Origin: Candidatus Dormiibacterota bacterium
Lineage (GTDB): Bacteria > Chloroflexota > Dormibacteria > CF-121
Length of the DNA stretch: 60,937 nt
Direction: 5' to 3'
Assembly: GCA_036513655.1 (NCBI GenBank)
Contig: DATBYO010000124.1
Location: forward strand, 1-60,937
The position numbers were made by a program, and so were the translations under genes. Each line of letters opens with the position of its first letter. Position 1 is the first letter of the stretch. The notes beneath the pieces are model-generated. The model had not been told where the DNA came from. It worked only from the letters and a program-made list of their open reading frames with translations, and searched no databases. Shown here piece by piece: positions 4,062-54,323 of the stretch.

Positions 4062-4409
4062 ATGGCTGAGGACTGCCTCTTCTGCAAGATCTTTGCGCGG
4101 GAGATTCCGGCAAAGGAAGTCTTCCGGGACGAGGAAATCGTTGCCTTCGAGGACATCCGTCCGGTCGCCCCGACCCACGTCCTGATCATTCCAAGGGAGC
4201 ACATCCCATCGGTCCACGAGCTGAAGCCCGACCACAGTCACATGCTCGGCCGGATCTTCGAGGTGGCAAACCGGATCGCCGACGAGCGGAAGATCGATCG
4301 GGATGGGTACCGCCTGGTCTTCAATAAAGGTCCGCAGGCGGGCCAGTCCGTCTACCACCTGCACGCCCACCTGCTGGGCGGGCGCGCGATGGGCTGGCCA
4401 CCAGGCTAG
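4062..4409 (+). CDS. HIT-family (histidine triad) nucleotide-binding protein
   Basis: CLFCKI N-terminus and HLHAHLLGG (HxHxHxx) triad; 115 aa. Confidence 0.85.
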   Translation: MAEDCLFCKIFAREIPAKEVFRDEEIVAFEDIRPVAPTHVLIIPREHIPSVHELKPDHSHMLGRIFEVANRIADERKIDRDGYRLVFNKGPQAGQSVYHLHAHLLGGRAMGWPPG

Positions 4410-6869: not shown

Positions 6870-6872
6870 TCA

Positions 6873-7961: not shown

Positions 7962-8023
7962 CAACCCCACCAGGCTAGCCGCAGGTTTGCCCCGGTTGAC
8001 GCGTTTGCTCCGGTTGGAAACAT

Positions 8024-8215
8024 ATGAAGCCGGCGCTTTCCACAAGCGAGGCGGCGCGATGGCTCGGGATCAGTAAGTCGACCCTGATCCGCGCGGTGAA
8101 CCGGGGCGACATTCAGCCGGCGTTTCGCACCCCCGGCCGGCACCTGCGTTTCACGGTCGACGATCTCAACGCGATTCGGCGCCGGCTGCGAGGGCCGGCC
8201 GGGGAGGTCGCGTGA
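8024..8215 (+). CDS. Small excisionase/MerR-like helix-turn-helix (HTH_17-type) DNA-binding protein
   Basis: LSTSEAARWLGISKSTLIRAVNRGDI..GRHLRFTVDDL pattern; 63 aa; GTGA overlap with pilB. Confidence 0.7.
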   Translation: MKPALSTSEAARWLGISKSTLIRAVNRGDIQPAFRTPGRHLRFTVDDLNAIRRRLRGPAGEVA

Positions 8216-15962: not shown

Positions 15963-16032
15963 CGGCCCGGAGGGGAGGGCTTCCACTGGCTGTAAGACGT
16001 AGGAAGTCGGACCTTCCTTCGTTGCACGGAAA

Positions 16033-18626: not shown

Positions 18627-19670
18627 CTAGCCGAAGACCTGCTGGAGATCGTACAGCTCGCGCGGCACCCGGCGGGTTTCCGCAATCACATCGCGCAGCG
18701 GCACCACCGCGACCTGCCCGTCCCGCCGGATCGGGATCACCCCTGCCTTCCCATCGGCCAGCAAGTCGGTCGCCGAAACGCCCAGCCGGGTTGCCCAGAT
18801 GCGGTCGATCGGCGACGGCGAACCGCCGCGCTGCAGGTGGCCGAGCACGGTCACCCGCGTCTCGAATCCGGTCGCCTCCTCGATCCGGGTGCTGAGCGAA
18901 TCACCGACGCCTTGTTTGGCCAGCTGCACGTGGCCGAAGGCGTCCCGCTTCTCGGCGGCGGCCGTGGCGGCCATCGCCGGCTGGAGCGCGCGCATCTTCA
19001 CACCCTCGGCCACGACGATGATGCTGAAGTCCTTGCCTTCGCCGCGACGGCGGTGCAGATGCTCGACGACCGCGTCGAGCTCGGCCGGGAATTCCGGGAT
19101 GAGGATCATGTCCGCGCCGCCCGCGAGGCCGCCCACCATCGCGACCCAACCGGTGTCACGGCCCATCACCTCCACCACCATCACCCGATGGTGCGCTGAT
19201 GCGGTGGTGTGCAAGCGATCGAGGGCCTCGACGACCACCCCGACCGCGGTATCGAAGCCGATGCAGAACTCCGTAACCGAGAGGTCGTTGTCGATCGTCT
19301 TCGGGACGCCGACGACCGGATAGCCGGCGTCGCTCATGGCGGCCGCGACCGACAGCGTGTCGTCACCGCCGATCGCCACCAGACCCTGGACACCGCTGCC
19401 CTTCAGCAGGCTGATGACGTTCTCGACGCCGCCTTTCTCCTTGAGGGGATTGGTGCGAGAGGTACCCAGGATCGTGCCGCCAAGGGGAAGGATGCCGCGC
19501 ACGGATGTCGGCGTCAGATCTTCGAGATCGCCTTCGCCGAGCACGCCGGCCCAACCGTTCTTGATGCCGCTGACCTGGAACCCACGCTGGAAGGCGCGGC
19601 GCACCACCCCACGGATGGCGGCGTTGAGGCCAGGCGCGTCGCCACCGCCGGTGAGAACGCCGATTCGCAC
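18627..19670 (-). CDS. 6-phosphofructokinase, with residues typical of PPi-dependent enzymes
   Basis: GGGDAPGLNA, IGGDDT (Asp at the position of E. coli G104), GVPKTIDND (Lys at the position of G124), MGR. Confidence 0.85.
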   Translation of the reverse strand: MRIGVLTGGGDAPGLNAAIRGVVRRAFQRGFQVSGIKNGWAGVLGEGDLEDLTPTSVRGILPLGGTILGTSRTNPLKEKGGVENVISLLKGSGVQGLVAIGGDDTLSVAAAMSDAGYPVVGVPKTIDNDLSVTEFCIGFDTAVGVVVEALDRLHTTASAHHRVMVVEVMGRDTGWVAMVGGLAGGADMILIPEFPAELDAVVEHLHRRRGEGKDFSIIVVAEGVKMRALQPAMAATAAAEKRDAFGHVQLAKQGVGDSLSTRIEEATGFETRVTVLGHLQRGGSPSPIDRIWATRLGVSATDLLADGKAGVIPIRRDGQVAVVPLRDVIAETRRVPRELYDLQQVFG

Positions 19671-25647: not shown

Positions 25648-25947
25648 TCAGGCAGCTTTCAGATGAAGCAGGTCCCGGCAGCGGTCGAGCCAACGCGTCA
25701 GCAGGCGCTCTTCCTCTCGTAGCTCGGCCATCTTCCCCGGGTACTGCTCGATGTTGGCGTGCAAGAGGTTGAAGCGGTCGCGCGTCAGCGGATCCGCGCC
25801 GAAGATCGCCTTGAGCGTCAGCGCCCGCTGATGCTCCCGGGTCAGCTCCGCCATCTGCTCCTGCACGCGGTCGAGCTCGCCTCGCATGTCGGCGGCGATG
25901 TCCTTCACAATCTCCGAGTCGATCGGCTCCGGCTGTACGACGTTCAT
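25648..25947 (-). CDS. 99-aa predicted coiled-coil protein, unknown function
   Basis: Heptad-like charged sequence (ELDRVQEQMAELTREHQ..MAELREEERLL); ATGA overlap with the CpaF-like gene upstream. Confidence 0.5.
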   Translation of the reverse strand: MNVVQPEPIDSEIVKDIAADMRGELDRVQEQMAELTREHQRALTLKAIFGADPLTRDRFNLLHANIEQYPGKMAELREEERLLTRWLDRCRDLLHLKAA

Positions 25948-27236
25948 CGGCGCACCCCCAGCGTAAAGTCCGGCGCCTTGCGGTCGGGATAGAGGGCGGC
26001 GAGCGCCGGCGAGATCGCCACCTTCTTGAGGTAGATCTTGGCCATGGCATTCGGGCGGATCCCCGTCGGGCTGAGCTTGCCCTGGATTTTTCCGTTCCCG
26101 TCGACGCCCGTTTCCTCGAACGTGAAGACATCCTGCAGGGTGATCGTGTCACCCTCGCGGCCGACGATTTCGGTGATGTTCACGATGCGACGGGAGCCGT
26201 CTCGAAGGCGGGAGGTCTGGACGATGAGGTGGATCGCCGAGGCGATCTGCTCCCGAATGGCGCGCTGTGGAAGGTCGACCCCCGACATCAGCACCAGCGT
26301 CTCCAGCCGGGCGAGCGTGTCGCGCGGCGAGTTGGCATGGATGGTCGTCAGCGAGCCATCGTGACCCGTATTCATCGCCTGCAACATGTCCAGCGCCTCG
26401 CCACTGCGGCACTCGCCGATCACGATCCGGTCCGGCCGCATGCGGAGGGCATTCGCAACCAGTTCGCGAATACTGATCCGCCCGGTGCCGTCGATTCGTG
26501 ACGGACGGGATTCGAGGCGGACCTTATGCGGCTGGCGAAGCTGCAACTCGGCGGCGTCCTCGATGGTGACCACCCGTTCGGTGTCAGGGATGAACGACGA
26601 CAAAACGTTGAGCATCGTGGTCTTGCCCGAACCGGTGCCGCCCGCGACCAGGACGTTGAAGTGGGCCTTGACGCAGGCCTCCAGGAACGCCGCCCCCTCG
26701 GCCGTGAGGGTGCCGAAGTTGATCAGGTCCTGGACGGTGTAGGGATCCCGCGCAAACTTCCGAATGGTGAGGGACGCCCCGTCGATCGCCAGCGGTGGAA
26801 TGATCGCGTTGACCCGTGAGCCATCTGGGAGCCGACAGTCCACCATCGGCGATTCCTCGTCGATCCGCCGTCCGACAAAGGCGGCGATTTCTCGAATCAC
26901 CCGGATCAACTCGGCGTCGCTCGCGAACTTTACGTCGACCGGGGTCAGTTGACCATTGCGTTCGATGTACACCTGGTTGGGCCCGTTGACCATGATCTCG
27001 CTGATGCTGTCGTCGTTCAGCAGCGCGGTGATCGGGCCGTAGTCGCGCCCGGCGAGGCCCAGGGTGTCGCCGTCAACCGGCGATTCCACCTCGGCCAGAT
27101 GGAACGTGACAGCGGACCCCACGCGCCGACGATACGGCCGCAAGCCTACGGCAGACCTAACAGGACTCGCGCCTTTCGCGGACGTTAACCCGACTGTCAA
27201 ATCCGGGTCCGGGAATGGTCGCGGACCGGCCAACAA
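25944..27236 (-). CDS. CpaF/TadA-type secretion ATPase
   Basis: ISEIMVNGP, Walker A GGTGSGKTT, VTIEDAAEL, IVIGECRSGEA, MNTGHDGSLTTIHAN. The start is uncertain (TTG 27236 or GTG 27122). Confidence 0.85.
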   Translation of the reverse strand: MLAGPRPFPDPDLTVGLTSAKGASPVRSAVGLRPYRRRVGSAVTFHLAEVESPVDGDTLGLAGRDYGPITALLNDDSISEIMVNGPNQVYIERNGQLTPVDVKFASDAELIRVIREIAAFVGRRIDEESPMVDCRLPDGSRVNAIIPPLAIDGASLTIRKFARDPYTVQDLINFGTLTAEGAAFLEACVKAHFNVLVAGGTGSGKTTMLNVLSSFIPDTERVVTIEDAAELQLRQPHKVRLESRPSRIDGTGRISIRELVANALRMRPDRIVIGECRSGEALDMLQAMNTGHDGSLTTIHANSPRDTLARLETLVLMSGVDLPQRAIREQIASAIHLIVQTSRLRDGSRRIVNITEIVGREGDTITLQDVFTFEETGVDGNGKIQGKLSPTGIRPNAMAKIYLKKVAISPALAALYPDRKAPDFTLGVRR

Positions 27237-29937: not shown

Positions 29938-30026
29938 CTTAGGCGGCTCGACGTAGCCGGTGTCGGTCTGCCAATATCAGGGTAAGGACATCACGCTTCG
30001 GCTGTAGCCGTATGGAGGGAAAGCTG

Positions 30027-32552
30027 ATGGTGTACGGGAAGATTTACGTCCCCCTCGATAACTCGGACCATTCCAATGCGGCTATCGAGGTCGCCATTCA
30101 GCTCGCAAAATCGACGCAGGCCAAGCTCGTTGGGACCCATGTGTACGCGGCGCGGATGCACGACGTGCGCTTCAAACAGATGGAGTACACGCTCCCGGAG
30201 GAATATCAGCACGAGCAGGAGCTCGAGCGTCAACGGAAGATCCACGACTCGCTGATCACCCGCGGGCTGCAGCTGATCTCGGATTCCTATCTCGACGTCA
30301 TGAAGGCGGCCTGCGATCGGGCGGGTCTTCCCTTCGAGTACAAGACATTCGACGGCAAGAATTGGGAATGCCTGGTCGACGACGTCGCCGAGTCGGACTA
30401 CGACCTGGTGATCATGGGCGCGCTCGGCATGGGCGCGGTCAAGGACAGCATGATCGGCAGCGTCGCCGATCGGGTGGTGCGTCGCATCCGCGTCGACTCG
30501 CTCGTCGTGCGCGATCCGCATCCGTTCCGAGATGACGCGTCAGATCGGATCGTGGTTGCCATCGATGGTAGCCCGCAGTCCTTCGCCGGCCTTCGGACGG
30601 CGATTGGGTTGGCGCGGGCCCTTGGCAAGCAGGTTGAGGCGGTCTCCGTCTACGACCCCTACCTCCACTACGCGATGTTCAACGGCATCGTCGACGTCCT
30701 CTCCGCGGAAGCCTCCAAGATCTTCCGCTTCAAGGAGCAGGAACAGCTCCACGAGGAGATCATCGACACCGGGCTGGCCAAGATCTATGAATCGCACCTG
30801 CGAGTCGCGCAGTCGGTGGCTCGCGATGAAGGCGTCGAGATCAAGACGACGCTCCTCGACGGCAAGGCCTTCAAGAAGGTCCTTCAATACGTTCGGCAGG
30901 ACCCGCCCTGGCTCCTGGTGATCGGCCGGATCGGGGTGCACTCCGCGGCACAGATGGACATCGGCAGCAACAGCGACAACTTGCTCCGCCTGGCACCGGT
31001 CAGCGTCCTGCTGTCGAGCCGCACCTACGTTCCCCCGGTTGATGTGCAGGCGGAGGCTAGCGTTGCCTGGACCGAGGAGGCGGAGGCACGCATGGAGAAA
31101 GTGCCGGCCGGGTTTCGCGCGATCACGCGCACCGCCATCTGCCGCTACGCGATGGAACGCGGGCACTCGATCATCAGCTCCTCGATCATCGACCTGGCGG
31201 TGTCGGAGGTGATGCCCGAGCATGCCGCTCGCGCCATGGGTGTCGAGCCGGCTGGCTCGATGGCCCGTATCACCAGCGAGGAAACCACCGCGACCTGGAT
31301 CTGCCGCCGTTGCGGCCGTCCGGCCCGGGCGGAGAAACCGCAGTCGTGCCCTGTCTGCGAGGGCACCAGCTTTCAGCCGATCGACAAAGCGGCGATCGCC
31401 GCCGCCGCGACCCGCGAGGGCGGCGTGGAGGAAGAGGAGGCCTTCGACGGCTTCAAGGTCAAGTGGACCGCTGACGCCAAGGAGATCCTCAACCGCGTGC
31501 CCAAGGGATACGAGCGACGCCGGGTCAAGGCGCGGATCGAAAAGATCGCCCGGGTCCAACGCCTGCCGAGCATCACGAGGGATTTCGCCGACACGAACCT
31601 GGACGAGGCGTACGCGCCGGTGGCCGAGGTGGTCAGCGACACGCTGCCGCCGGCGCCGAAGCCCGCCGCCGAGACGCCCCTCATCTGGACCGACGAGGCG
31701 GTGCAGCGGATGGAGCGGGTGCCGGGCGGCTTCATGCGGATGCTGGCTCGCACCAAGGTCGAGGAGTTTGCCCGCAAGATCCAGGCGAATACCATCACCC
31801 GCGACGTGGTCGAAGGCGGGCTGGTCGATGCCAGGCTGATGATGGATCAGGCGCTCAAGGCCCACTCGCCGGAGGTGGTGAAGGCCGCGATGCAGGTCCA
31901 CGGCCATAACGGCGATGGCAACGGCGCCGAACCCCGGGAACCTTCACCCGGGTGGACCGAGGATGGAGTCCGGCGGCTCAACGAGGTTGAGATCCGCGCC
32001 GAGGAAAAATTCGATCCCTCCCGAGCTCGTGAACTCGCGCAGCACGCCGCCGAATCCCGGGCGGCGCGAACCTCGGAGGCGATCAATGCGGCCTTCCTGG
32101 AGCGGCTGGGGATCAAGATCGGCTACGGTCATCCGCTCAGCCCAAAGACCTTCGAGCACCGCTTCACCTGGTCGCCGGAGGCGGAGGCACGCCTCGCCAA
32201 CCTCCCCTCGTACTGCCGCGAGCTGAGCCGCTGGCGCGTGGAGTGGACGGCGGCCAAGAAAGGCCTTGGCCCGGTGATCACGCCGGCAGTAATGGACGTG
32301 AAGTTCGACATGTGGGGCGAAGTCTCGGACGCCCTGCAGCAGAAGGGGCCGCAGATGGCCTGGGAGCCGGAGGCGGAGAAGCGGCTCGAGAACATGCCGC
32401 CCTTCGTGAAAGGCCAGGTGATGGCGGCGGTCGAGGGCAATGCCCAGGAGCTCGGCGAAGAGCGAGTCACGACAAAGGTGATGGACGCCGTCATCCAGAA
32501 GTGGATCGAGACGGGCGATTTCCATGAAGGTCGATACGGCTTCAGAGCCTAG
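30027..32552 (+). CDS. Two universal-stress-protein domains + Zn-ribbon + six PCP_red-like (protochlorophyllide reductase B C-terminal type) repeats
   Basis: ATG 30027 has a GGAGGG SD 7 nt upstream; the track start is 30012. USP motifs (IYVPLDNSDHS..GALGMG..GSVADRVV; IVVAIDGSP..GRIGVH..GSNSDNLL). CRRC..CPVC ribbon (about 31302-31358). Repeats of W(T/S/E)xEAxxR(M/L)xxVPxxxR...A...G...IT between about 31068 and 32507. Confidence 0.7.
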   Translation: MVYGKIYVPLDNSDHSNAAIEVAIQLAKSTQAKLVGTHVYAARMHDVRFKQMEYTLPEEYQHEQELERQRKIHDSLITRGLQLISDSYLDVMKAACDRAGLPFEYKTFDGKNWECLVDDVAESDYDLVIMGALGMGAVKDSMIGSVADRVVRRIRVDSLVVRDPHPFRDDASDRIVVAIDGSPQSFAGLRTAIGLARALGKQVEAVSVYDPYLHYAMFNGIVDVLSAEASKIFRFKEQEQLHEEIIDTGLAKIYESHLRVAQSVARDEGVEIKTTLLDGKAFKKVLQYVRQDPPWLLVIGRIGVHSAAQMDIGSNSDNLLRLAPVSVLLSSRTYVPPVDVQAEASVAWTEEAEARMEKVPAGFRAITRTAICRYAMERGHSIISSSIIDLAVSEVMPEHAARAMGVEPAGSMARITSEETTATWICRRCGRPARAEKPQSCPVCEGTSFQPIDKAAIAAAATREGGVEEEEAFDGFKVKWTADAKEILNRVPKGYERRRVKARIEKIARVQRLPSITRDFADTNLDEAYAPVAEVVSDTLPPAPKPAAETPLIWTDEAVQRMERVPGGFMRMLARTKVEEFARKIQANTITRDVVEGGLVDARLMMDQALKAHSPEVVKAAMQVHGHNGDGNGAEPREPSPGWTEDGVRRLNEVEIRAEEKFDPSRARELAQHAAESRAARTSEAINAAFLERLGIKIGYGHPLSPKTFEHRFTWSPEAEARLANLPSYCRELSRWRVEWTAAKKGLGPVITPAVMDVKFDMWGEVSDALQQKGPQMAWEPEAEKRLENMPPFVKGQVMAAVEGNAQELGEERVTTKVMDAVIQKWIETGDFHEGRYGFRA

Positions 32553-35732: not shown

Positions 35733-36210
35733 CCCGCGGCGGCTGAGCCGCCGGCAGTTCGCCGTCCTCGGTACCCAGTTGGCCGGCGCCGTCGTGGCAG
35801 TGCTGCTGGGGATTCCGATCGTCGGCTTCTTGATCTCGCCGCTATTCCGGCGCGAGCAGGTGGTCTGGCGGGAAGTGGGCGACATCGCCCGCGTCCCCGA
35901 TGCGGAGCCGACCAAGTTCGACGTCTCCTTCCCGCAACAGGCCTGGACGCAGGTGGATATCAAGGCCGCCGTCTACGTGGTGAAACGTAACGGCAACACC
36001 AGGGTCTTCTCCAATGTCTGCAGCCACATGCAATGTCCGGTTCGGTGGGAAACCACCCTCGGCCAGTTTCTTTGTCCCTGCCACGGCGGCCTCTATGACA
36101 TGGACGGCACGAACGTCGGCGGGCCGCCGCCGAAGCCCCTGCCCCAGTTCGTGCACCGGATCGACGGTACAACCCTTTTCGTCCAGAACCGCTTCACCGA
36201 GGAGATCTAG
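35719..36210 (+). CDS. Rieske 2Fe-2S protein with Tat signal
   Basis: ORF 35662-36210 trimmed to ATG 35719; RRLSRRQF twin-arginine motif, TM helix, CSHMQC and CPCHGG boxes. Confidence 0.85.
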   Translation: MAHRDPRRLSRRQFAVLGTQLAGAVVAVLLGIPIVGFLISPLFRREQVVWREVGDIARVPDAEPTKFDVSFPQQAWTQVDIKAAVYVVKRNGNTRVFSNVCSHMQCPVRWETTLGQFLCPCHGGLYDMDGTNVGGPPPKPLPQFVHRIDGTTLFVQNRFTEEI

Positions 36211-37376
36211 TGGTCCGCCGGCTCGGAGCAGCCTACAACTGGTTCGACGAGCGAACGGCGATCCGCAGCTTGCTGCGGAAGGGCCTGTACGAAGCGGTGC
36301 CAGTTCGCGGGGCCTGGTTCTACACCCTGGGCAGCGCCACGCTCGTCTTGATCCTCCTCCAGCTGATCACCGGCATCTTCCTCACGCTGCTGTACGTCCC
36401 GTCGGTCACGGAGGCCTGGGCGAGCTTGAACTACCTGAAAGCGCACGATGCCTTCGGCTCGATCGTCCGCGGGATTCATCTGTGGTCCGCCTACATCCTG
36501 TTGTTCGTGATCGGCCTCCACATGGTGCGGACCTTCTTTTCCGGCTCCTATAAGCGCCCGCGGGAACTCAACTGGGTGACCGGCGTCGGGCTCTTTCTCC
36601 TCGTCCTGGTGATGGCGATCACCGGCGCCTTTCTTCCGTGGGACCAGGCGGCGTATTGGACTGCCGTGGTCGTCACGAATGTCCCCTCCTACACCCCCGT
36701 GATCGGACCATTCCTGCGGGCACTCTGGCGCGGTGGAGATTTCGTCGGTCCGATCACGCTCAGCCGCAGCTTCGGCATCCATGTCTGGCTGATCCCGGCC
36801 ATCCTCTTCCCGCTGATCGGCGCGCACCTCGCGCTGCTGCGTAAACATGGCGAATTCGGCTCGTACATCAATTACCGGGGGGCCTACCGAAGCCGCGAGG
36901 GGGTGGACGTGCCGCCGGCGCCGGTGCAGCGTCCGATCGAGCCGCCCTATCCGGCCGTGCCTACCGATGAGCTCTGGGCCGCTCCCCTCGAGACCGAGGA
37001 TTTCTACCCGCATCAGACGTTCAAGGACGGTGTCATTTCGGCGGCGCTGGTCGTTCTCGTCTTCATCCTGGCGGTCGCCATCGGCGCCCCCCTCGAGGCG
37101 ATCGCCGATCCGTCCACGACGAGCTACACGCCCGTGCCCGAATGGTTCTTCCTGCCGCTCGATGAACTGCTCGTGCTGGTCCCGCAACAACTGATCCCGC
37201 TGGTCCTCGTGCTCCCCGCGGGAGGGGTTCTCCTGCTGCTCGCGCTGCCCTTCATCGATCGCGGCCCGGAGCGCAACCCGTTCGAACGTCCGGCGGTGAT
37301 GGTGCCGGGAGCGTTCGCCGTGCTCTTCGTCGTCATCCTGACCTTGCTCGGCTCGGGGCGGCTCTTCAACCTATGA
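36210..37376 (+). CDS. Cytochrome b (fused b6 / subunit IV type)
   Basis: His pairs GIHLW..GLHMV and GIHVW..GAHLA, a PEWFFLP (PEWY-type) Qo motif; TAGTG junction with the Rieske gene. Confidence 0.85.
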   Translation: MVRRLGAAYNWFDERTAIRSLLRKGLYEAVPVRGAWFYTLGSATLVLILLQLITGIFLTLLYVPSVTEAWASLNYLKAHDAFGSIVRGIHLWSAYILLFVIGLHMVRTFFSGSYKRPRELNWVTGVGLFLLVLVMAITGAFLPWDQAAYWTAVVVTNVPSYTPVIGPFLRALWRGGDFVGPITLSRSFGIHVWLIPAILFPLIGAHLALLRKHGEFGSYINYRGAYRSREGVDVPPAPVQRPIEPPYPAVPTDELWAAPLETEDFYPHQTFKDGVISAALVVLVFILAVAIGAPLEAIADPSTTSYTPVPEWFFLPLDELLVLVPQQLIPLVLVLPAGGVLLLLALPFIDRGPERNPFERPAVMVPGAFAVLFVVILTLLGSGRLFNL

Positions 37377-40456: not shown

Positions 40457-41578
40457 CTACTCGAGGCCGATGACGTGCTTGAACTTATCGAAGAAGCCCT
40501 TTTCGATGTGTTGGGGCTTGCCGCTGACGCCGCCGAGCGTGCGCAGGGCTTCCTTTTGTTCCTCGCTCAGGCTGGTGGGAATCACGACCCGCACATAGAC
40601 GATCTGATCTCCGCGACGACCCGAGCGCACATGGGGGACGCCGCGGCCGTGGATCCGGATCATCTTCCCGTATTGGGTGCCGGCCGGAATCTCGACTCGC
40701 TCCGGCCCGTCGACCGTCGGGATCTCGACGGTGTCACCAAGGGCGGCCTGGGCGATGCTCAATGGCAGCTCGTAGACGACGTCCGTGCCGTTCCGTTTCA
40801 GCACCGCATGCGGCTTGACGTGGATGACGATGTAGAGGTCACCCGCGGCGCCACCCCGAGGCCCTACCTCGCCTTCACCGGCGAGCCGGATCTGTGATCC
40901 GCCATCGACGCCGGCGGGAATCGTCACCCGCACCTTTTTTTCTCCGGGCCGGTGGCCGCTGCCGCCGCAGGTCCGGCAGGGTCGCTCGATGACCTTGCCC
41001 TCCCCGTTGCATCGAGGGCAGCTGGCGACGTTGACGATCTGCCCGAAGATCGACTGGGTGGCCCGCCGCACCTGGCCGGCGCCGCGGCACTGCGGACAGG
41101 TCTGCGGTGAGGTGCCGGCTTCCGCGCCGCTTCCCTTACAGGCCGCGCAGGGCTCGGCCCGGGGGATGGTCAGCTCGCGCTCGACGCCGAAGACGGCCTC
41201 TTCGAACGTGAGCCGCAGGTCGAGTCTGAGGTCAGTCCCGCGCCGTGGGCCGGTGCGGCCCCGTCCGGCGGCCGCCGCGCCGAAGAACATGTCGAAGATG
41301 TCATTGATGCCGCCGAACCCTGCGCCGCCGAAATCGAATCCCGGCGTGCCCTGCGTGCCGGCATGGCCAAAGGTGTCATAGCGCTGCCGTTTCGATTGGT
41401 CGCTCAGGACCTCGTAGGCCTCGTTGACTTCCTTGAAGCGGGCCTCGGCTTGCGGATCGTTTGGGTTACGGTCGGGGTGAAACTGGAGCGCCAGCTTCCG
41501 ATAGGCGCGCTTCAATTCTTCGGCGCTGGCATTCCGTCCGACACCGAGGACCTCGTAGTAATCCCGCTTGATCGCCAT
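40457..41578 (-). CDS. dnaJ: Chaperone DnaJ (type I)
   Basis: J-domain HPDRNP, a G/F region, and four CxxCxGxG repeats. Confidence 0.95.
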
Positions 41579-41587
41579 ACGGTGGTG

Positions 41588-42199
41588 CTAGGACTTTAAC
41601 GCGCGCGGGTGCGCAACCTTGACCAGGGTCGGGCGGAGCACCCGCTCGTGAAGCCGGTAGCCAGGCTGCATCTCCTCAACGATCGTGCCCTCTTCGTGCT
41701 CGTCGGTCTCCTCCTGCGCAATGGCCTCGTGCTGCGAAGGGTCGAACTTCTCACCGACCGACGGGATGGTCGAAAGGCCCTGGGCCCGGAGGGTGTCCTC
41801 GAATTGGCGCGCGACCATCTTGACGCCGTTGTACCAGTTGGGATCCACCCCTTCGGGGGCATGGTCCAGCGCGCGGCGGAGATTGTCGAGGATGGGAAGC
41901 AGCTTGCGCAGCAACTCCTCGTTGGCGTACTGGGTCCGGTCGCCGAGTTCCTGCCGAGTGCGGCGCTTGTAGTTGTCGAAGTCGGCCGCGAGCCGCTGGT
42001 AACGGGCGAAGGTGGCCTGTGCCTCGTCGCGCGCCGCCTGAAGGTCAGGATCGACCGGCAGTTGATCCTGGCGCGGCTGCTCCGCATCTACCGCTGAGCT
42101 GGCCCTGGCGTCGACGACACCGGGGCGGCCCTTCTGACCGCCCGTCTCGGGCTGGTCGGGGGATTGATGCTTTGGTGGCATGTCTTGCTTTTTACCCAT
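41588..42199 (-). CDS. grpE: Nucleotide exchange factor GrpE
   Basis: RLAADFDNYKRR and a C-terminal beta domain (FDPSQHEAI..GYRLHERVLRP). Confidence 0.9.
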   Translation of the reverse strand: MGKKQDMPPKHQSPDQPETGGQKGRPGVVDARASSAVDAEQPRQDQLPVDPDLQAARDEAQATFARYQRLAADFDNYKRRTRQELGDRTQYANEELLRKLLPILDNLRRALDHAPEGVDPNWYNGVKMVARQFEDTLRAQGLSTIPSVGEKFDPSQHEAIAQEETDEHEEGTIVEEMQPGYRLHERVLRPTLVKVAHPRALKS

Positions 42200-42215: not shown

Positions 42216-43256
42216 TCAGTTGCCGAGGTGGGCCAGGACCTCGGACGTTGCGTGGCTGACCAGCCGCACCCGGGCGACCACCTGGCCGTAATGCATGCGG
42301 GTCGGCCCGATCACCCCGATCGTGCCTCGCACCCGATCAGCCATCTTGTACGTGGTCAGCACCAGGCTGCATTCCCGCAGGCCACTGCTCGTGTTCTCTC
42401 GCCCGATGATGATCTCGACATCCTTCTCGAACGCCACCTGCTGCAGAATGCCGGCCAGCTGGGCGCCCTGCTCGAGCAATTCCATCAGCTCCTCCAACCG
42501 GCTGACCTCGACGAACTCGGGGTGACGGAGCAGATTGCGCACCCCGTCATGCAGGACCACCGTCTGCCTCTGCGCCTGATGCGTGGTGATCGAGTCGATC
42601 AGCCGCTCGATGATGCGGCGCTGTTCAGCTTTTTCGGGACCCAGCTCGTCTAAGCGGACCGCGAGCTCCTCGGCGGTCTGCCCCTTGACCTTCTGATTCA
42701 GCATGGCCGCCATTCGGCTGAGGTCGTCCTGGGTGGTCGCCCGCTCGAGATGCACGACCTGCTGCTTGATCAGGTTGCCTTCGAGCACGAGGATGATCAG
42801 GACCGACTGGGGCTCGAGCGAGACCAGGTCGATGTGCTTGATGCGGGACTCGCTGACCTCCGGCGCGGTGACCAGGGAGACGTTCTCGGTCACCTGCGAC
42901 AGCACCATTGCCGCCTTCTCTAGGATCCCGTCGACACTGCGTGGCGCCGTTTCGAACTCCTGTTTCACGGTCCGCCGAGCCGTCGCTGAGGCCGCCTCCG
43001 GCTCCATCAGAAAGTCCACGAAGTAGCGGTAACCCCGGTCGGTGGGAATGCGGCCGGCGGAGGTGTGCGGCTGGTGCAGGTAGCCGGTCCCCACCAGGTC
43101 GGCCAGCTCGTTGCGGATCGTCGCCGAGGAGAGCGCGATGAAGTACTTGGCCGCCAGCACCTGAGATCCGACCGGCACCCCCGTCACGGTGTAGTCCGAG
43201 ACGACGGCTTTCAGGATCTGCTGCTTACGCTCGTCGAGCGGGGTGGGTTCCAGCAT
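42216..43256 (-). CDS. hrcA: Heat-inducible transcription repressor HrcA
   Basis: LDERKQQILKAVVSDYTVTGVPVGSQ winged-helix N-terminus; 346 aa; CIRCE immediately upstream. Confidence 0.9.
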   Translation of the reverse strand: MLEPTPLDERKQQILKAVVSDYTVTGVPVGSQVLAAKYFIALSSATIRNELADLVGTGYLHQPHTSAGRIPTDRGYRYFVDFLMEPEAASATARRTVKQEFETAPRSVDGILEKAAMVLSQVTENVSLVTAPEVSESRIKHIDLVSLEPQSVLIILVLEGNLIKQQVVHLERATTQDDLSRMAAMLNQKVKGQTAEELAVRLDELGPEKAEQRRIIERLIDSITTHQAQRQTVVLHDGVRNLLRHPEFVEVSRLEELMELLEQGAQLAGILQQVAFEKDVEIIIGRENTSSGLRECSLVLTTYKMADRVRGTIGVIGPTRMHYGQVVARVRLVSHATSEVLAHLGN

Positions 43257-43258
43257 GG

Positions 43259-43285
43259 TTGGCAGTCTCGATCACCGAGTGCTAA
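43259..43285 (-). promoter_or_regulatory. CIRCE operator (HrcA binding site)
   Basis: Minus strand reads TTAGCACTC-N9-GACTGCCAA against the consensus TTAGCACTC-N9-GAGTGCTAA: one arm perfect, the other 7/9. It ends 2 nt before the hrcA ATG. Confidence 0.7.
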
Positions 43286-43290
43286 ATCGG

Positions 43291-43320
43291 ATTGTACCGG
43301 CTATTCTCGCTCCATGCCCA
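43291..43320 (-). promoter_or_regulatory. Possible hrcA promoter (TGGGCA-N18-TACAAT)
   Basis: Minus-strand TACAAT at 43296-43291, 5 nt upstream of CIRCE; the -35 match is weak. Confidence 0.3.
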
Positions 43321-43937
43321 CCCCGGTCCGAATCTACTCGGACTACGTCTGACCCTTCTGCTACATCGACTCGGTCGGAGTCGAGCGGCTGGAGCGCGAA
43401 TACGACGTCGAGATCGACTGGGTGCCCTTCGAGCTGCATCCCGAGATCCCGCCAGAGGGGCGGCCGCGCGACGAGGTGCTGCCGCTGGCCTACCTGGCCC
43501 AGGCCGAGGCGGGCGTGAACCGACTGGCCACGGCGGTCGGACTTCGACTCAAGTTGCACGACCGGCTCATCAACTCGCGCCCCGCCCTGCAGGCGGCTGA
43601 ATTCGCCCGGGAACAGGGGCGCTTCGCGCCGATGCACCGGGAGCTGTTCAGGGCGTACTGGGATGAGGGGCGCGACGTCTCCGCCATCGAGGTTCTGCGG
43701 GAGGTCGCCGCGCGGACCGGTGTCGACGTTGCCGGGATGGAGTCGGCGGTCGAAGAGAACCGGTTCGGTGATTACCTGGATGCGCGTCGCGCCGAGGCGG
43801 AGGACCTGATGATCAACGGCATCCCGGCCCACGTGATCGCCGATCGCTATCTTGTGATGGGCGCGCAGCCCTACGACCTGTTCGAACGCGTCATGGCCAA
43901 AGCCGGCGTCCCCAAACGCGCGGGGGAATCGTCGTGA
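43314..43937 (+). CDS. DsbA/FrnE-like thiol-disulfide oxidoreductase with in-frame TGA at the first Cys of CPxC (candidate selenoprotein, alternatively a pseudogene)
   Basis: ATG 43314 gives MPTPVRIYSDYV-TGA(43350-43352)-PFCYIDSVG..VEIDWVPFELHPEIPPEG, continuous with track ORF 43422-43937. Confidence 0.6.
43360..43389 (+). promoter_or_regulatory. SECIS-like stem-loop downstream of the in-frame TGA
   Basis: Upper stem 43366-43372/43378-43384 (7 bp), loop GGUCG, bulged A 43365, lower helix 43360-43364/43385-43389. Confidence 0.45.
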
Positions 43938-43953
43938 TCGGTGGCGCCGCGGC

Positions 43954-44289
43954 CTAGGAGAAGCGGTGCTGCTGGACGGCTCGCACGAGTAAGCCGGCGC
44001 CGACGACCGCCACCAGTAGGAAGACCGTCACAGCCAACGGCGTCCGCATGTCGTATCGACAGGTCGCACATTCGCGGATGACGTTGATAAGAATGGCTGC
44101 GCCGGCCAATCCGGCACCGACCATGTAGGCGCCGGGTTGCTCCGGTTGGCTTCTGAACCTGATGAGCAGAAGCACCAGGAAGACGATCGCGGTGATCAGG
44201 GGCAGGGGTCCGGCCGCGAGTGCCGCGTAGCCGAGCGCGGCACCGGCAAGAAGAAAAGCGACAGCAGAGAGCAGAACCCGAGTGTTCAC
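43954..44289 (-). CDS. Small integral membrane protein
   Basis: Four hydrophobic segments; 111 aa. Confidence 0.5.
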   Translation of the reverse strand: MNTRVLLSAVAFLLAGAALGYAALAAGPLPLITAIVFLVLLLIRFRSQPEQPGAYMVGAGLAGAAILINVIRECATCRYDMRTPLAVTVFLLVAVVGAGLLVRAVQQHRFS

Positions 44290-48210: not shown

Positions 48211-49329
48211 TTACCCGAGGAACGCGGCGCCGACCTGATTGGCTAATTCGACGCCGCGGCGCGTCAGGCGCACCTGGCCAGCCTCCTCGACCAGCAGACC
48301 CGCAGAGACGAGCTCTTGGCGTTGAACGGGGAAGTCATGCGCCGAGCCGGTTCCCGCCAGGAGTCGGACGCCGATCATGGCCGCCTCGCCGCGGGCACGC
48401 GCCGGCGACAATGTCTCGCTGCCGTCCAGCGCATGGCCCGTTGCGGAAACCTTCCTGATGTACGCGTGCGGCCCCTTCAGGTTCCACCGCCGCTCGGTGC
48501 TCGAGTCGTCCAGCCGGAACATCGAATGCGCGCCGGCCCCGCAGCCGAGGTATGGCTGGTAGTTCCAGGCGGCCAGGTTATGCCGGCAGGCGAATCCGGG
48601 TCGCGACCAGTTCGAGATTTCGTAGTGGTCATAGCCGGCGGCCTCCAGTCGCGCTGCCGCGCCCCAGTACTGCTCGAGCTGATCGTCGGCGCCGGGCATG
48701 CGGACCAGGCCGGTCCTGACCTCCTGGCCGAGCCGGGTCCCCGACTCAACCGTCAGCTCATAGGCCGACAGATGCTGGACGCCTTCGGCAAGCACCGCGT
48801 CGAGCGTCTCGTGCCAGGTGGCGAGATCCACCCCGGGCACCCCGAACAGCAAGTCGGCGCTGACGTTCGCGAACCCGCCGGCACGCGCCGTGCGGATCGC
48901 GCCGATCGCATCCGGGCCGGAATGGAGCCGTTCCAGGAAGCGCAGTGCGTCGGGTTGCAGGCTCTGTACGCCGATGCTGAGCCGATTGACGCCGGCCTGC
49001 AGCCAGCCATCAACGGTCTCGCTCGTCACGTTGCTTGGGTTCGCTTCGAGCGTGATCTCGGCTCCGGGCGCGAGGCCGACGGCGCGCACGCGGTCAAGGA
49101 TCTGGCCTACCTGAGGGGTCGTCAGCAAGCTGGGCGTGCCACCACCGATGAAGACCGTGTCGACCGGCCCGATGGGAACTTGGGCGACCGCGCGGTCGAT
49201 TTCGTGGCTGAGCGCGTCGACGTAGGGAGAGATCAGTCCCTCCAGGACGGCATAGGCGTTGAAGTCGCAGTACTTGCAGACCCAGGTGCAGAACGGCACG
49301 TGCAGGTAGAGGCTGTGAATGCGTTCCAT
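48211..49329 (-). CDS. hemW: Radical SAM heme chaperone HemW (HemN-like)
   Basis: ORF trimmed to ATG 49329 ([24 protein letters not shown], CxxxCxxC); ATGA overlap with lepA. Confidence 0.85.
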   Translation of the reverse strand: MERIHSLYLHVPFCTWVCKYCDFNAYAVLEGLISPYVDALSHEIDRAVAQVPIGPVDTVFIGGGTPSLLTTPQVGQILDRVRAVGLAPGAEITLEANPSNVTSETVDGWLQAGVNRLSIGVQSLQPDALRFLERLHSGPDAIGAIRTARAGGFANVSADLLFGVPGVDLATWHETLDAVLAEGVQHLSAYELTVESGTRLGQEVRTGLVRMPGADDQLEQYWGAAARLEAAGYDHYEISNWSRPGFACRHNLAAWNYQPYLGCGAGAHSMFRLDDSSTERRWNLKGPHAYIRKVSATGHALDGSETLSPARARGEAAMIGVRLLAGTGSAHDFPVQRQELVSAGLLVEEAGQVRLTRRGVELANQVGAAFLG

Positions 49330-51134
49330 CAGTCCAGGCTCAACACCGCCATGAAGGCCTCCTGCGGGATCTCGACGTTGCCGACGCGTTTCAGGCGCTT
49401 CTTTCCTTCCTTCTGCTTCTCGAGCAGCTTCCGCTTCCGGGTCACGTCGCCGCCGTAGCACTTGGCGGTGACGTCTTTGCGCATCGCCGGCACGGTTTCC
49501 CGGGCGACGATCTTGCCGCCGATCGCGGCCTGGATCGGAACCTCGAAGAGCTGGCGGGGAATGAGGGTCTTGAGCTTTTCCGCCAGGCGACGCCCTTGCT
49601 GCTGCGCCTTGCTGCGATCGACGATCATCGACAGCGCGTCGACGGGCGAGCCCGCAACGAGCACGTCGAGCTTGACGAGATTCGCTTCCTCGAAACCGAC
49701 CAGCTCGTAGTTGAGTGAGGCATATCCCTTGCTGCGCGACTTGAGCTGGTCGTAGTAGTCGTGGATGATCTCGGCCAGCGGCATCCGGTAGGTGATGACG
49801 ACCCGGTCGCCCGGTTCGTACTCCATATTGAGGAACTGACCGCGCCGCTCCTGGCTGAGCTCCATCATGTTGCCGACGTAGGTGCTCGGCACGACGATGG
49901 TCGCGAGCACCATCGGCTCACTGATCGCCTCGATCTCGCCGGGATCGGGGAGATGATCCGGATTGTCGACCGGCACCTCCTCACCGTTGCGCAGCTTGAC
50001 TCGGTACTCGACGGTGGGCGCCGTGCCGAGCAGGGTCAGGTTGAACTCGCGCTCGAGGCGCTCCTGGACGATCTCCATGTGTAGCAGGCCCAGGAAGCCG
50101 CATCGAAACCCGAAGCCCAGCGCCGCTGACGTCTCCGGCTCGTAGATGAGGGCAGCATCGTTCAGCTGAAGTTTCTCGAGCGCGTCCTTGAGCTGCTGGT
50201 ACTGCTCGGTGTCGGTGGGGAACAGACCGGCGAACACCATGGGGGTGACATGACGGTACCCGGGCAGCGGCGCTGCGGCGGGCCGGGCCTCGTCGGTCAC
50301 CGTGTCGCCCACGCGTGAGTCGCGGACGTTGCGGATGTTGGCGATCAGGTAGCCGACCTCGCCGGCGGTCAGGTCATCGACAGGCGTGCGTTCTGGGCGG
50401 AAGATGCCAACCTCATCGACTTCGAACGACTTTCCGGTCTGCATCATCTGGATGCGCATGCCGGGGCGCAGCGTGCCCTCGAGTACCCGGATGTAGGTCA
50501 CGACCCCTCGGTAGGCGTCGAACTTGGCGTCGAAGATCAGTGCGCGCAGGGGCGCGGCGGAGTCTCCCGTTGGTGGCGGGACCCGATGGACGACCGCCTC
50601 CAGGATCTCCTTGGTCCCGATCCCCTGGCGGGCGCTGGCGAAGATGACCGTTTCGGCCGGTAAGCCGATCACCTTCTCGATCTCTTCGCGAACCAGCTCG
50701 GGGTTCCCCTGCGGGAGGTCGATCTTGTTGACGACCGGGATGATCGTCAGATTGTGGTCAAGAGCCTGGTGCACATTCGCCAGCGTCTGCGCCTCGATCC
50801 CCTGCGAGGCGTCGACCACCAGGATGGCGCCGTCGCAGGCGGCCAGCGCCCGCGAGACTTCATAGGAGAAGTCGACGTGGCCGGGGGTGTCGATCAAGTT
50901 GATCTGGTACGTGTTGCCGTCGTCGGCCTTGTACAGCATCCGGACGGCCTGCGCCTTGATGGTGATCCCCCGCTCGCGCTCGAGATCGAGTTGGTCAAGT
51001 ACCTGCTCGACCATATCCCGCGGCGCCACCGTGCCCGTGTACTCGAGCAGGCGGTCGGAGAGCGTGGTCTTTCCGTGATCGACGTGCGCGATGACGGAGA
51101 TGGCGCGCGTCAGATGGGTCGGCGTGGACACCAA
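49329..51134 (-). CDS. lepA: Translation elongation factor 4 (LepA)
   Basis: [22 protein letters not shown], and the characteristic LepA C-terminal domain; 601 aa. Confidence 0.95.
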
Positions 51135-51201: not shown

Positions 51202-52233
51202 TTAGCTGCGGGAGGCCCTGGAGGCGCTGGGAAGGTTCTGGGCGATGCTACCGAGCTCCCGGCGGCCGGCAGCCTTTACCCGGTGCGCCAGGACCATCTC
51301 CGCCACCTCATTGACCTCGGGGACGCCGACCTCGGGCACCCCTCGGTAGGCGGCCAGCGCCTGGGAGGCCTTCCGGCCGACCAAATCGGCGCGATGCCCG
51401 TCCACCTGGAGGCTGACATTGAGCTCGGCGAGCGCCCGGAGGATCCCGGGCGGCATCACCACATGCGGGAAGCGCACGATGGCCTCGGCGATCCGGGTAC
51501 CAATCTCGGCATCCTGCCCGGCGAACCGCTTGCTGAAGGCGGCCGGATTGGACTCCCACTCTTCGCGACGCTCCACGATCTGGACCCGCTGCCCGATGTC
51601 CTTGATGCCTTCGACATCGACCGTCAGACCGAATCGATCGAGCAGCTGGGGCCGCAGGTCCCCCTCTTCCGGGTTCATCGTCCCGACCAGGATGAAGCGC
51701 GCCGGATGCCAGATCGAAATGCCCTCGCGTTCCACCACGTTGACGCCCATCGCGGCGGCATCGAGCAGCACGTCGACCAGATGGTCGTCGAGCAGGTTCA
51801 CCTCGTCGACGTAGAGGATGTTTCGGTTCGCCTCGGCCAGGACGCCGGGCTCGAACCGGCGCTCACCGCTTTTGATCGCCGCCTCGATGTCGATCGCCCC
51901 GACCACCCTGTCCTCTGAGGCATTGATGGGCAGCTCGACGACGCGCATCCGGCGGCGAGCGCGCGGGAGCGTCTCGCCGCGGGCCAACCGGTCCTGGCAA
52001 TCCGAGCAGAGCGACTCGGTCGCGTCCGGGTCGCACCGGTAAGGACAGTCCGCGACGACGGTCAGCTCCGGAAGCAGGCGGGCCAGGGCCCGCACCGCCG
52101 TCGACTTGCCGGTACCCTTCTCGCCTCGAATCAGGACGCCCCCGATCGCCGGATGGATCGCGTTCAAGACCAGGGCAAGCTTCATCTTGTCCTGGCCGAC
52201 GATGGCGCTGAAGGGATAGACAAACCGTTCCAT
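51202..52233 (-). CDS. ChlI/BchI-family AAA+ chelatase ATPase subunit
   Basis: Walker [10 protein letters not shown], Walker [26 protein letters not shown], and a CPYRC-X8-CSDC insertion. Confidence 0.8.
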
Positions 52234-54323
52234 CAGGCTGACCCTGTCCTTAGCATCTCACGCTGGACGCTGTCGACGATCGCACTTTGCGAGAGATCGA
52301 ACAACCCGTAGTAGCGGCCGCCAAGGCGCTCGGCCAGGTCGCCACAGACGTTGAACGCATAGGCACCGTAGAGACTCGTCACTCGATTGCGGGGATAGCC
52401 CGGCTGGCTGCCAAAGTCCCGGGTGGAGTCGATCACCATTGCTCGAATGCCCTCTTGCTTGATCTGCCCGGCCATTCGCTGGGCCTCGAGGAGCGGCTCT
52501 TCGCCGAAGAGGCTGATGTTCCCTCGCCCATCGCTGATCAGCACTAACAACGGATAGACCTGCGGATCTCGCAACCGCTCCGTCTTGACCAATTTCAACC
52601 CGGTCATCAACCCGTGGGTCAGTGGCGTGGTCCCCCCGATGCTGAGCCGCTCCAAGCGGCGCTCGGCGAGATCCACGCTCGATGTCGGCCGCAACACGAC
52701 GCGGGCGTTGCGCCCGCTGAAGGCGACGAGCGCCACCTTGTCGCGACGGACGTAGGCATGGCGGAGCAGCGACAGAATGGCTCCTTTGGTAGCCAGCATC
52801 CGCTGTTCGGCATCCATCGAGGCGGATGCATCGACCACGAAGACGATCAGGTTCCCGGTCTTTCGCTCCCGAACTTTCTGACGAAGGTCCTGGCTTTCCA
52901 GCTGGAGCTGGTTGGTGGCATCAGGCGCCGTTTGCCGGCGGCTGAGCTGGTAGGGCGCAGCCGCCCGCACGGTCGCATCGAAGGCCACATCGGTGACCTT
53001 CTCCACCTGCGAGCTTCGCACATATCGGCCGCGTTTCGTCTGACTTTTCGTGGAGGTCCGCTTCCCGGCCGCGCGTCGTGCCTGCCGTTCTCGGGGCAGG
53101 TCCAGCTTCTTGACGGCGAAGGTCCGCAGTTGGATGACCGCGTCCGCCTCGGCGTCGACGGTCTCGTTGGTCGGGGACTCACGCGACTCGGAGGTCGTCC
53201 ACCCTTCGTTGGACTCGCCGCCGGACGCGCCTTCCTGCTGCGTCACGTCGGAGCGAACCGCCTTGGTCGTCTCGGTCGGCGAGGCGGCCTGGATCTGCGC
53301 CAGCTGCTCGGCTGCGCGCGACGCGAGCTCCTGCACCTGTACCTGCTTGTCGCTGAACGGCTCCCGCCGACGGTGCGCCAGCGCAAGCTCGAGAGCTTCG
53401 AGCACGTCCGGCAGCTCGACAACTGATCCGCCGCGCAGCGCGCAAATGGCCCGAGCCGTTCGGGCGACCACCAGGTCGGCGCGATGGCCGGCCACCGAAC
53501 CATCAAGGCAGAGCCGAGCGATCAGCGTGCGGATCGGATCCGGGAGCTCGACCGCCGACAGGCGGCGGGTTGCCTCCTGCAGCAGTCCGCGAAGTTGCGC
53601 TTCCCGCTCCGCCCAGACACCGTGAACGGCCAGCGGGTCCTGGAGGAAATCGCGCTCCAACTCCATGACGCGCAGCCGCTGGTCGATGTCGGTCGGCGTG
53701 ACGACGTCGACACATAGCCCAAACCGGTCCAGCAGCTGCGGCCGGAGCTCACCCTCCTCGGGGTTCATGGTGCCGACCAGGATGAAGTGGGAGGGGTGAA
53801 CCACGGACATTCCCTCCCGTTCGACCACGTTGACGCCCATCGCCGCGGCATCGAGCAGGACGTCGACAAGGTGGTCGTCTAACAGGTTGACCTCATCGAC
53901 ATAGAGAAGGTTGCGGTTCGCCTCGGCGAGCACGCCGGGCTGAAACCGCCGGGTCCCGGCGCGGACCGCCGCCTCGATGTCGATCGAGCCGACCAGCCGG
54001 TCTTCGGAGGCGTTGATGGGCAGGTCGACGATCCGCATCGGCAGCCGCGTGACAGGCAGGGCCCCTGCCGTGGCGCGCCGCCGGCAGTCGTCGCAGTATC
54101 GGGAGGGAATCGCCGGGTCGCAGCGGTACGGGCAGCTCTCGACCGCGTCGTAATCCGGCAGTAATCGGGCGAGCGCGCGCACCGCCGATGATTTCGCGGT
54201 GCCGCGGTCGCCGCGGATCAGCACCCCGCCGATGGCTGGATCGACAGCATTGAGCAGGAGCGCCTTCTTCATCTGCTCCTGGCCCACGATGGCGGAGAAC
54301 GGCAGCGTCAATTGGAACGGCAC
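52233..54323 (-). CDS. ChlD/BchD-like subunit: ChlI-like AAA+ module, acidic/polar linker and C-terminal vWA domain
   Basis: The N-terminal roughly 330 aa are highly similar to the neighbouring ChlI-like protein, but the P-loop reads GDRGTAKSS. vWA MIDAS is [14 protein letters not shown] overlap with the chlI-like gene. Confidence 0.8.

Follow-up and report, generated by a model that had tools for sequence, protein, structure and literature searches.

Can a TGA codon that lies inside a gene for a thiol-disulfide oxidoreductase specify selenocysteine (Sec; U in motifs) in a soil bacterium of the phylum Dormibacterota? This question is raised by positions 43314–43937 (+ strand) of the 60,937-nt stretch analysed here, which is referred to as the window. 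If the TGA is read through, the open reading frame (ORF) encodes a FrnE-like member of the DsbA family that has Sec in place of the nucleophilic Cys. An earlier note on this DNA, made from the letters only, had proposed just such a selenocysteine-containing DsbA/FrnE-like oxidoreductase. That proposal is now supported by conservation of the TGA across genomes, by covariation in a hairpin just downstream of it, and by SelA and SelB in related genomes. Very probably, the gene is a genuine Sec-containing FrnE-like DsbA, belonging to the known 'form 1' (UxxC) family of DsbA-like selenoproteins.

A TGA codon at the position of the catalytic cysteine

From the ATG at 43314, the frame translates as MPTPVRIYSDYV-TGA-PFCYIDSVGVERLEREYDVEIDWVPFELHP... 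and continues for 207 codons to a TGA stop at 43935–43937. The internal TGA (43350–43352) is codon 13. It aligns with the nucleophilic first Cys of the CxxC motif and is directly followed by PFCYIDS..., so that the candidate active site reads U13-P-F-C16. The resolving residue of this UxxC motif would be Cys16 (TGC, 43359–43361), which is the sole Cys in the protein; alignment A1 has no variation in columns 22 and 23 and ≥90% conservation in column 24. With U read as C, the 207-residue product matches the Pfam DSBA domain (PF01323) with E=2.9e-33 and 115.7 bits (cut-off 25.6), over positions 2–189 of a profile of 191. The match is full only when the TGA is read through; the first β-strand and the active site are therefore located upstream of the ORF that a gene caller reports.

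This shortened ORF (43422–43937, + strand) begins with a GTG, encodes 171 residues without the redox motif, and appears both in a mechanically compiled ORF list and as the public call P0001. Other public records are truncated in a similar way. Among 5.8 billion protein clusters, 609 relatives were found, and the best 120 of them (drawn from NCBI, JGI, ENA and Logan sources) have 74–100% identity and 167–206 residues and cover only 80–92% of the query. Because coverage stops there, none of these 120 clusters reads Cys at codon 13, and ten clusters that were fetched all begin 3' of the TGA, with 'MDSVGV...', 'MEREYD...' or 'VPFELHP...'. In the NCBI records P0002, P0003, P0006, P0007 and P0075, the start 'MDSVGV' corresponds to the codons for I-D-S-V-G-V. 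Apparently, to steer clear of the TGA, the NCBI annotation placed the start at this Ile codon, which is ATC in the genome loci read. The earlier note had set the frame from the ATG at 43314, with the TGA at the site of the nucleophilic first Cys, and had predicted that standard gene callers would shorten the gene; its coordinates and translation agree with ours, and the truncation is borne out by the 171-residue ORF and by all 120 best clusters, which lack the motif.

In a genome collection, 80 loci encode relatives of the window protein. The codon at the first-Cys position is a Cys codon in 62 of them (TGC in 40, TGT in 22) and a stop in the remaining 18, where that stop is always TGA. In both groups (18 TGA, 62 TGC/TGT), this column is part of a shared motif, D-[YF]-[VI]-x-P-[FW]-C. 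The TGA loci are found in eight Dormibacterota metagenome-assembled genomes (MAGs), three genomes labelled Limnocylindria or Eisenbacteria, one Thermomicrobiales MAG, the MAG CF_5, two Archangium genomes (one being the cultured A. violaceum Cb vi76), one Nitrospirota MAG and two Chloroflexi/Chloroflexia MAGs. They are species-level genomes from several phyla. All close relatives of the window gene carry TGA at codon 13, and the Cys homologues are more distant. A neighbour-joining tree (no bootstrap) places 17 of the 19 Sec forms in one pure clade, which spans several phyla and includes those from Archangium (L014 and L015; Myxococcota), and sets the other two (L016 and L019) apart, among the Cys forms. 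Since the same TGA is common to independent assemblies, it is not a sequencing error, which settles the doubt that had attached to the letter at 43352.

Substitutions between the window gene and ten close relatives indicate that both sides of the TGA are translated. Codons 1–12, 5' of the TGA, show 38 synonymous and 13 non-synonymous changes; the N-terminal piece is therefore translated in frame and under purifying selection. Between TGA and GTG, the in-frame PFCYIDSVGVERLEREYDVEIDW stretch is also conserved as protein. In codons 14–36 (43353–43421), which include the hairpin region, there are 22 synonymous and 34 non-synonymous changes, against 526 and 382 in the rest of the gene (codons 37–200). 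The depletion of silent change in codons 14–36 is as expected, because an RNA structure within coding sequence would constrain silent sites.

The hairpin downstream of the TGA

In the minimum-energy fold, the TGA is followed by a stem-loop (43366–43384, + strand) with a 5' arm at 43366–43372, the loop GGUCG at 43373–43377 and a 3' arm at 43378–43384. We take it to be the upper stem-loop of a candidate bacterial selenocysteine insertion sequence (bSECIS). On its own, the 19-nt hairpin has a folding energy of −10.1 kcal/mol (z=−2.9; attained by 4 of 200 shuffles), and the RNA from the UGA to +43 folds at −16.7 kcal/mol. Counting the U of the UGA as 1, the loop begins at nt 24, so that 20 nt separate it from the UGA.

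In the published bSECIS model (PMC13188914, Fig. 2A), an upper stem of 4–16 bp carries a loop of 3–9 nt, a G stands in either of the first two loop positions and is usually followed by G or U, 16–37 nt separate the UGA from the apical loop, and the minimum free energy is −7.5 kcal/mol or lower. The window hairpin falls within all four descriptions, with a 5-nt loop on a 7-bp stem, the loop sequence GGUCG, a distance of 20 nt and −10.1 kcal/mol. Hairpins in the relatives have loops of 3–5 nt (GGUCG, GGUCA, GUC, GUG, GUU, AGGCA or CGUGC) and stems of 7–9 bp; where the loop is at nt 24–25, which is so in 15 relatives, its first or second nucleotide is G.

Covariation was assessed in 19 TGA sequences, 18 of them distinct. 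Pairing at the seven stem positions holds in 95% of cells, and three of the seven pairs vary in both partners (U-A to C-G or G-C; C-G to U-A or A-U; C-G to A-U). The covariation score is 0.384, a value reached by none of 500 shuffles, and registers slid by 1–3 nt give at most 0.155. As comparative sequence data, this pairing and covariation are real evidence against a chance origin of the hairpin.

The Cys homologues provide a control, with equal GC content in the same interval (0.62 vs 0.63 in the Sec loci). The mean longest stem is 7.3 bp in the Sec loci and 4.6 bp in the Cys loci, and a stem of ≥7 bp occurs within the scanned interval in 17/18 Sec loci vs 9/62 Cys loci. The hairpin thus goes with the TGA forms rather than with the Cys forms.

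The SECIS of E. coli fdhF, a hairpin that is presumed to be the binding site of SelB, offers a further comparison. Both hairpins are located in coding sequence just 3' of the UGA and have a G-G-U-C loop some 20 nt away from it. Unlike fdhF, the window hairpin shows no equivalent of the bulged U, a lower helix is unsupported (see below), and the sequences are otherwise unrelated. However, bSECIS elements of different genes are often dissimilar to each other (PMC13188914).

Selenocysteine machinery and rival readings

Genes for SelA and SelB are present in the lineage. A first scan for SelA used a GC-biased back-translation of the universal motif GDKLLGGPQ, and mixed phyla were among the matches listed. 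In locus L115, from the Candidatus Dormibacterales MAG LS2_sbin.55, selA and selB are adjacent and both score above the NCBIfam equivalog cut-offs; the phosphofructokinase encoded there is 71% identical to that of the window. In L115 (1922–6333), selA-selB is directly followed by this phosphofructokinase gene (pfk), while the window pfk (18627–19670) has no adjoining selA or selB; the position of the sel operon is therefore not conserved within the phylum. A SelB-based scan found at least eight Dormibacterota MAGs, although its matches were swamped by universal G-domain 8-mers, and none of the MAGs with the TGA gene was among the matches listed.

A more specific signature, EIGGxFRMPDVMR, was derived from an alignment of seven Dormibacterota SelA sequences; other phyla have FRIPD. 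It was found in at least 119 loci, 36 of them labelled Dormibacterota and 13 from 'Chloroflexi bacterium CF_' MAGs (about 49 in total), the latter from the same study as the relatives of the window. In one locus, L309 from MAG CF_13, the signature occurs twice on the same strand, at 3681–3718 and 4101–4138, 420 nt apart; an internal duplication in selA, or an artefact of its assembly, might account for this.

At least three MAGs contain both the TGA gene and selA-selB. These are CF_30 (TGA gene in L005, product 81% identical to the window protein; selA-selB in L305), SMAG_U2670 (L004, 80%; L368) and CF_5 (L013, 44%; L392). Their SelA proteins score 506–549 bits (cut-off 268) and their SelB proteins 349–350 bits (cut-off 242) against the NCBIfam equivalog models. 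The HrcA of CF_30 is 93% identical to that of the window, and CF_30 is therefore a close relative of the window genome, the closest for which data were available. Four points can be regarded as demonstrated at the level of sequence: the Cys/Sec pair, the translation of codons before and after the TGA, the covariation of a SECIS-like hairpin, and the presence of SelA and SelB both in the lineage and in gene-carrying genomes.

By the established bacterial Sec pathway, the UGA at 43350–43352 would be decoded as Sec. The hairpin at 43366–43384, with G-G-U starting its loop, would be bound by SelB together with GTP and Sec-tRNA(Sec); SelB would compete with release factor 2 in bringing Sec to the ribosome. 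The TGA at the gene end, as in many genes of the window, would terminate translation normally. Incorporation of selenium at U13, and a catalytic role for this residue, would follow by analogy with this pathway.

Several observations weigh against a selenoprotein. The whole case is computational. In the 60.9-kb window, neither selA, selB nor selD was found (NCBIfam on 30 genes; tblastn with E. coli SelA, SelB and SelD), and ARAGORN detected no tRNA gene. A 601-residue GTPase (49329–51134) that was considered as SelB is LepA. Outside the window, 73 locus scans with ARAGORN gave no tRNA and hence no tRNA-Sec, with only about 8 kb available per genome, and tblastn with E. coli SelD gave 23 loci of other phyla and no Dormibacterota locus, again in pieces of about 8 kb. 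MAG bins may also be contaminated, which makes the presence of both genes in one bin slightly weaker evidence than an isolate genome would be. The missing SelD and tRNA-Sec are a data gap, not evidence of absence. The earlier note had named absence of the insertion machinery as a reason to abandon its reading; SelA and SelB have been found, both in the lineage and in three MAGs with the TGA gene, and SelD and tRNA-Sec have not, in these 8-kb pieces.

Among other explanations, the one that survives best, though we give it only a slim chance, is read-through of the UGA with an outcome other than Sec, either by near-cognate insertion of Cys or Trp or because TGA is generally a sense codon. Low-level insertion of Cys or Trp at Sec-UGA codons under selenium limitation is known in other bacteria, and SelD and tRNA-Sec are not demonstrated here. 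Against a sense codon, TGA is the normal stop for 18 of the 51 genes in the window, that of the selenoprotein gene itself included, and there is therefore no code reassignment. A scan of the window for further genes with an in-frame TGA yielded only ordinary gene ends sharing a frame with the next gene. Near-cognate insertion leaves unexplained why a covarying hairpin of SECIS geometry goes with the TGA forms, and why the same MAGs encode SelA and SelB, whose sole known role is in Sec synthesis and insertion.

Slimmer still is the chance that the hairpin is something other than a SECIS, being a by-product of the I-D-S-V-G-V-E coding sequence or a regulatory or attenuator structure, with recoding dependent on something else. 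This would be in keeping with the folding of the surrounding 61-nt stretch, which as a whole is no better than shuffles (z=−0.5), and with the Rfam results: at gathering thresholds, nothing was found in the whole window, and a permissive scan of 43250–43470 gave only chance-level matches (a microRNA family and COG3860 RNA) and no SECIS family. In addition, the in-register stem is reduced to 5–6 bp in L002 and L006, and L019 has none in register. A possible lower helix (43358–43361 with 43385–43388) is predicted in the fold, but its 5' side is fixed by the Phe-Cys codons, only 75% of cells are paired, and variation is one-sided, with 0 compensatory changes; it is weak and not counted as established. 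A by-product of coding is, however, difficult to reconcile with the peptides of the two arms, which shift together (DS..G to GL..R, GL..E or GE..I) along with paired changes in the arms; since their amino acids change together, the pairing is kept. Cys homologues of similar peptide sequence and GC content mostly lack the stem, synonymous sites are constrained in this region, and both position and loop fit the bSECIS model (PMC13188914). For the SECIS-like hairpin as drawn in the earlier note, the upper stem (43366–43372/43378–43384) and the GGUCG loop at nt 24 coincide with the minimum-energy fold, co-vary, and fit that model. Its lower helix and single bulged A at 43365 were rejected because covariation is lacking; the element below the stem is, in the predicted fold, a 4-nt asymmetric internal loop, UACA (43362–43365), in place of the bulge.

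Least probable, and already at odds with the comparative data, is a pseudogene, whose TGA would have arisen by a nonsense mutation not long ago or by faulty sequencing at 43352, and which is either dead or gives only the 171-residue product from the GTG at 43422: callers report this ORF alone and no Sec machinery is in the window, but the TGA recurs in 18 independently assembled species-level genomes, no full-length Cys form is among the 120 closest clusters, codons 1–12 (38:13) and the PFCYIDSVGVERLEREYDVEIDW stretch are conserved as protein, and a product from 43422 would be without the first β-strand and the whole DSBA active site. The orthologue comparison suggested at the outset thus favours a selenoprotein, with TGA in all close relatives and a hairpin that co-varies.

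The enzyme, its family and its genomic setting

Among solved structures, the closest to the window protein is FrnE from Deinococcus radiodurans (5CNW, also 5CP1; E=1.6e-20, residues 5–188). The block SDYV-U-PFCYI aligns with SDIA-C-PWCYI of FrnE, which places U13 opposite Cys22, the first Cys of CPWC. The proteins share this SD-x-x-[C/U]-P-[WF]-C-Y-I block and a G-[IV]-P loop: Pro171 in the G-I-P of the window protein (43824–43826, + strand) is aligned with the G-V-P of 5CP1/5CNW. We assume that this is the cis-Pro loop of thioredoxin-fold enzymes, the cis conformation being suggested by general knowledge of the fold. The DSBA domain begins at residue 5 and there is no hydrophobic leader or signal peptide, as read from the sequence and the Pfam match; this would place the protein in the cytoplasm. 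At E ≤ 1e-30, a threshold so strict that the outcome says little, NCBIfam models gave nothing for the window protein.

FrnE proteins, which have a CP(W/F)C site, are predicted to be oxidoreductases of the DsbA family located in the cytoplasm (PMC8945050). The D. radiodurans protein (DR_0659), which radiation, desiccation and cadmium induce, confers protection against cadmium, diamide and oxidative stress and has both disulfide isomerase and reductase activity (PMC8945050). Apart from having Cys where the window protein has Sec, it differs in its C-terminal CxxxxC motif (residues 239–244), which regenerates the active site. The window protein, with C16 as its sole Cys and its end at residue 207, has no such tail, and its recycling partner must therefore differ from that of FrnE. 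The FrnE proteins of S. roseofulvus and D. maricopensis are likewise without CxxxxC (PMC8945050), so this motif does not define the FrnE subfamily.

Periplasmic DsbA of the E. coli type likewise has a thioredoxin fold into which a helical domain is inserted, and an active site of the CxxC type that starts helix 1. A periplasmic oxidase was nevertheless rejected: the window protein has no signal peptide, its motif is of the C-P-F-C rather than the C-P-H-C type, periplasmic DsbA-type structures match it weakly (E about 1e-5), and, unlike for periplasmic DsbA, no dsbB partner was seen near the gene. Instead, the likeness to FrnE, the missing leader, C16 as the only Cys and the absence of CxxxxC point to a cytoplasmic disulfide reductase or isomerase. 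Acting like FrnE, such an enzyme would use Sec13 to attack substrate disulfides or to form a selenenylsulfide, and Cys16 would resolve the intermediate. Sec would be the more reactive nucleophile, with a lower pKa than Cys.

The homologues are labelled 'predicted DsbA family dithiol-disulfide isomerase' by JGI, which is presumably the name of COG2761. A 'DsbA-like' UxxC selenoprotein family assigned to COG2761, the COG of FrnE, was described in 2005 from nine Sargasso Sea sequences (PMC1088965), and DsbA-like selenoproteins were later found in Anaeromyxobacter dehalogenans, Desulfovibrio desulfuricans and Desulfotomaculum reducens (PMC1794560). A 2026 review has the entry 'DsbA-like protein form 1, PF01323, UxxC' (PMC13188914). 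The window gene fits this form, whose published representatives are NIP15863.1 and AACY01178397, by domain, COG name and UxxC motif. Like form 1, it matches PF01323, has Sec first in UxxC, and has the SECIS just downstream, with a G in a small apical loop. It differs in its hosts, which are Dormibacterota and Limnocylindria soil bacteria, and in its pairing with hrcA and an inverted repeat described below, which has not been described for the family. A literature search found no paper linking Dormibacterota with selenocysteine, and the host lineage seems to be new for the family; that the family itself is known, which the earlier note did not mention, lowers the novelty of the assignment and not its correctness.

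The neighbourhood of the gene is that of a heat-shock locus. It is divergent from hrcA (42216–43256, − strand), the first gene of an hrcA-grpE-dnaJ cluster (grpE, 41588–42199; dnaJ, 40457–41578); hrcA comes from the ORF list, and all three names from reading of the translations. The two divergent genes share a spacer of 57 bp, which contains an inverted repeat, TTGGCAGTC-N9-GAGTGCTAA (43259–43285), resembling CIRCE (controlling inverted repeat of chaperone expression). CIRCE, with the consensus TTAGCACTC-N9-GAGTGCTAA, is the operator recognised by HrcA. The repeat, found by a regular expression allowing ≤2 mismatches per arm, agrees with this consensus at 7/9 and 9/9 positions of its arms and is 2 nt from the start of hrcA; it may regulate both genes. 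It is present in 10 of the 10 relatives for which the upstream region is available (L001, L002 and L004–L011), with near-constant arms and a variable spacer, and in the same loci the divergent neighbour is an hrcA homologue of 72–94% identity. Beside the genes of more distant homologues, no match to hrcA was found.

A promoter-like site for hrcA (43291–43320, − strand) consists of a −35 element, TGGGCA (43320–43315), and a −10 element, TACAAT (43296–43291), separated by 18 nt; the −35 element overlaps the ATG of the selenoprotein gene. No other promoter-like match occurs in 43150–44100, where shuffled sequences give a mean of 0.2. By eye, TATTCT at 43302–43307, 6 nt before the selenoprotein ATG, could be a −10 element for a leaderless mRNA. 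We propose, tentatively and as something more probably wrong than right, that the FrnE-like Sec gene belongs to an HrcA/CIRCE regulon, possibly with a leaderless mRNA transcribed from TATTCT, and that the 57-bp spacer is a bidirectional control region whose CIRCE also controls hrcA-grpE-dnaJ, kept across Dormibacterota and Limnocylindria. The stress induction of FrnE would fit a gene located beside heat-shock genes. A literature search on CIRCE, HrcA and DsbA together gave nothing related.

Elsewhere in the window, a number of further features were observed. An 846-residue ORF (30012–32552, + strand) has its only strong NCBIfam match to the last ~48 residues of BchB, the B subunit of protochlorophyllide reductase (E=3e-26, residues 778–825), along with a weaker second BchB-like copy at residues 344–392 and a faint match to UspE; this architecture is odd for a lineage not known as phototrophic. 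Adjacent genes at 51202–54323 (− strand) encode BchI/ChlI-like (343 residues) and BchD/ChlD-like (696 residues) AAA+ chelatase subunits, for which the best model is 'putative cobaltochelatase', both being below its cut-off. The type IV pilus genes pilT, pilB (with an MshE-type N-terminus that binds cyclic di-GMP) and pilC are in a row at 6672–11143. A separate secretion ATPase of the TadA family is encoded at 25944–27236, and genes for cyclic di-GMP signalling proteins (14976–18459) are located between the pil genes and this ATPase. A cytochrome b6-like protein (36210–37376, + strand) scores 194.7 bits against the model 'selenite/tellurite reduction operon b-type cytochrome ExtP' (cut-off 290 bits). 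A link to selenium through this match was not accepted; it is below the cut-off and was taken as general cytochrome b similarity.

Existing knowledge of how Sec is decoded, and of the nature of DsbA-like selenoproteins, is unchanged by this gene. Its value is practical: a widespread annotation error is corrected, the use of Sec in Dormibacterota is recorded, and a hypothesis of co-regulation with the heat-shock response is raised. The best 120 public clusters lack the active site, and for this gene both the predicted function and the count of selenoproteins are therefore wrong in a very abundant soil lineage. SelA and SelB in dozens of MAGs mark the Dormibacterota, which are common in soils but uncultured, as a phylum with the Sec trait. 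That the gene is so constantly paired with hrcA and CIRCE suggests a link between selenium-dependent thiol chemistry and the heat-shock response; if the proposed regulation is true, a disulfide-repair selenoenzyme would be induced together with the chaperones, and a selenoprotein would be wired into the response to protein-folding stress.

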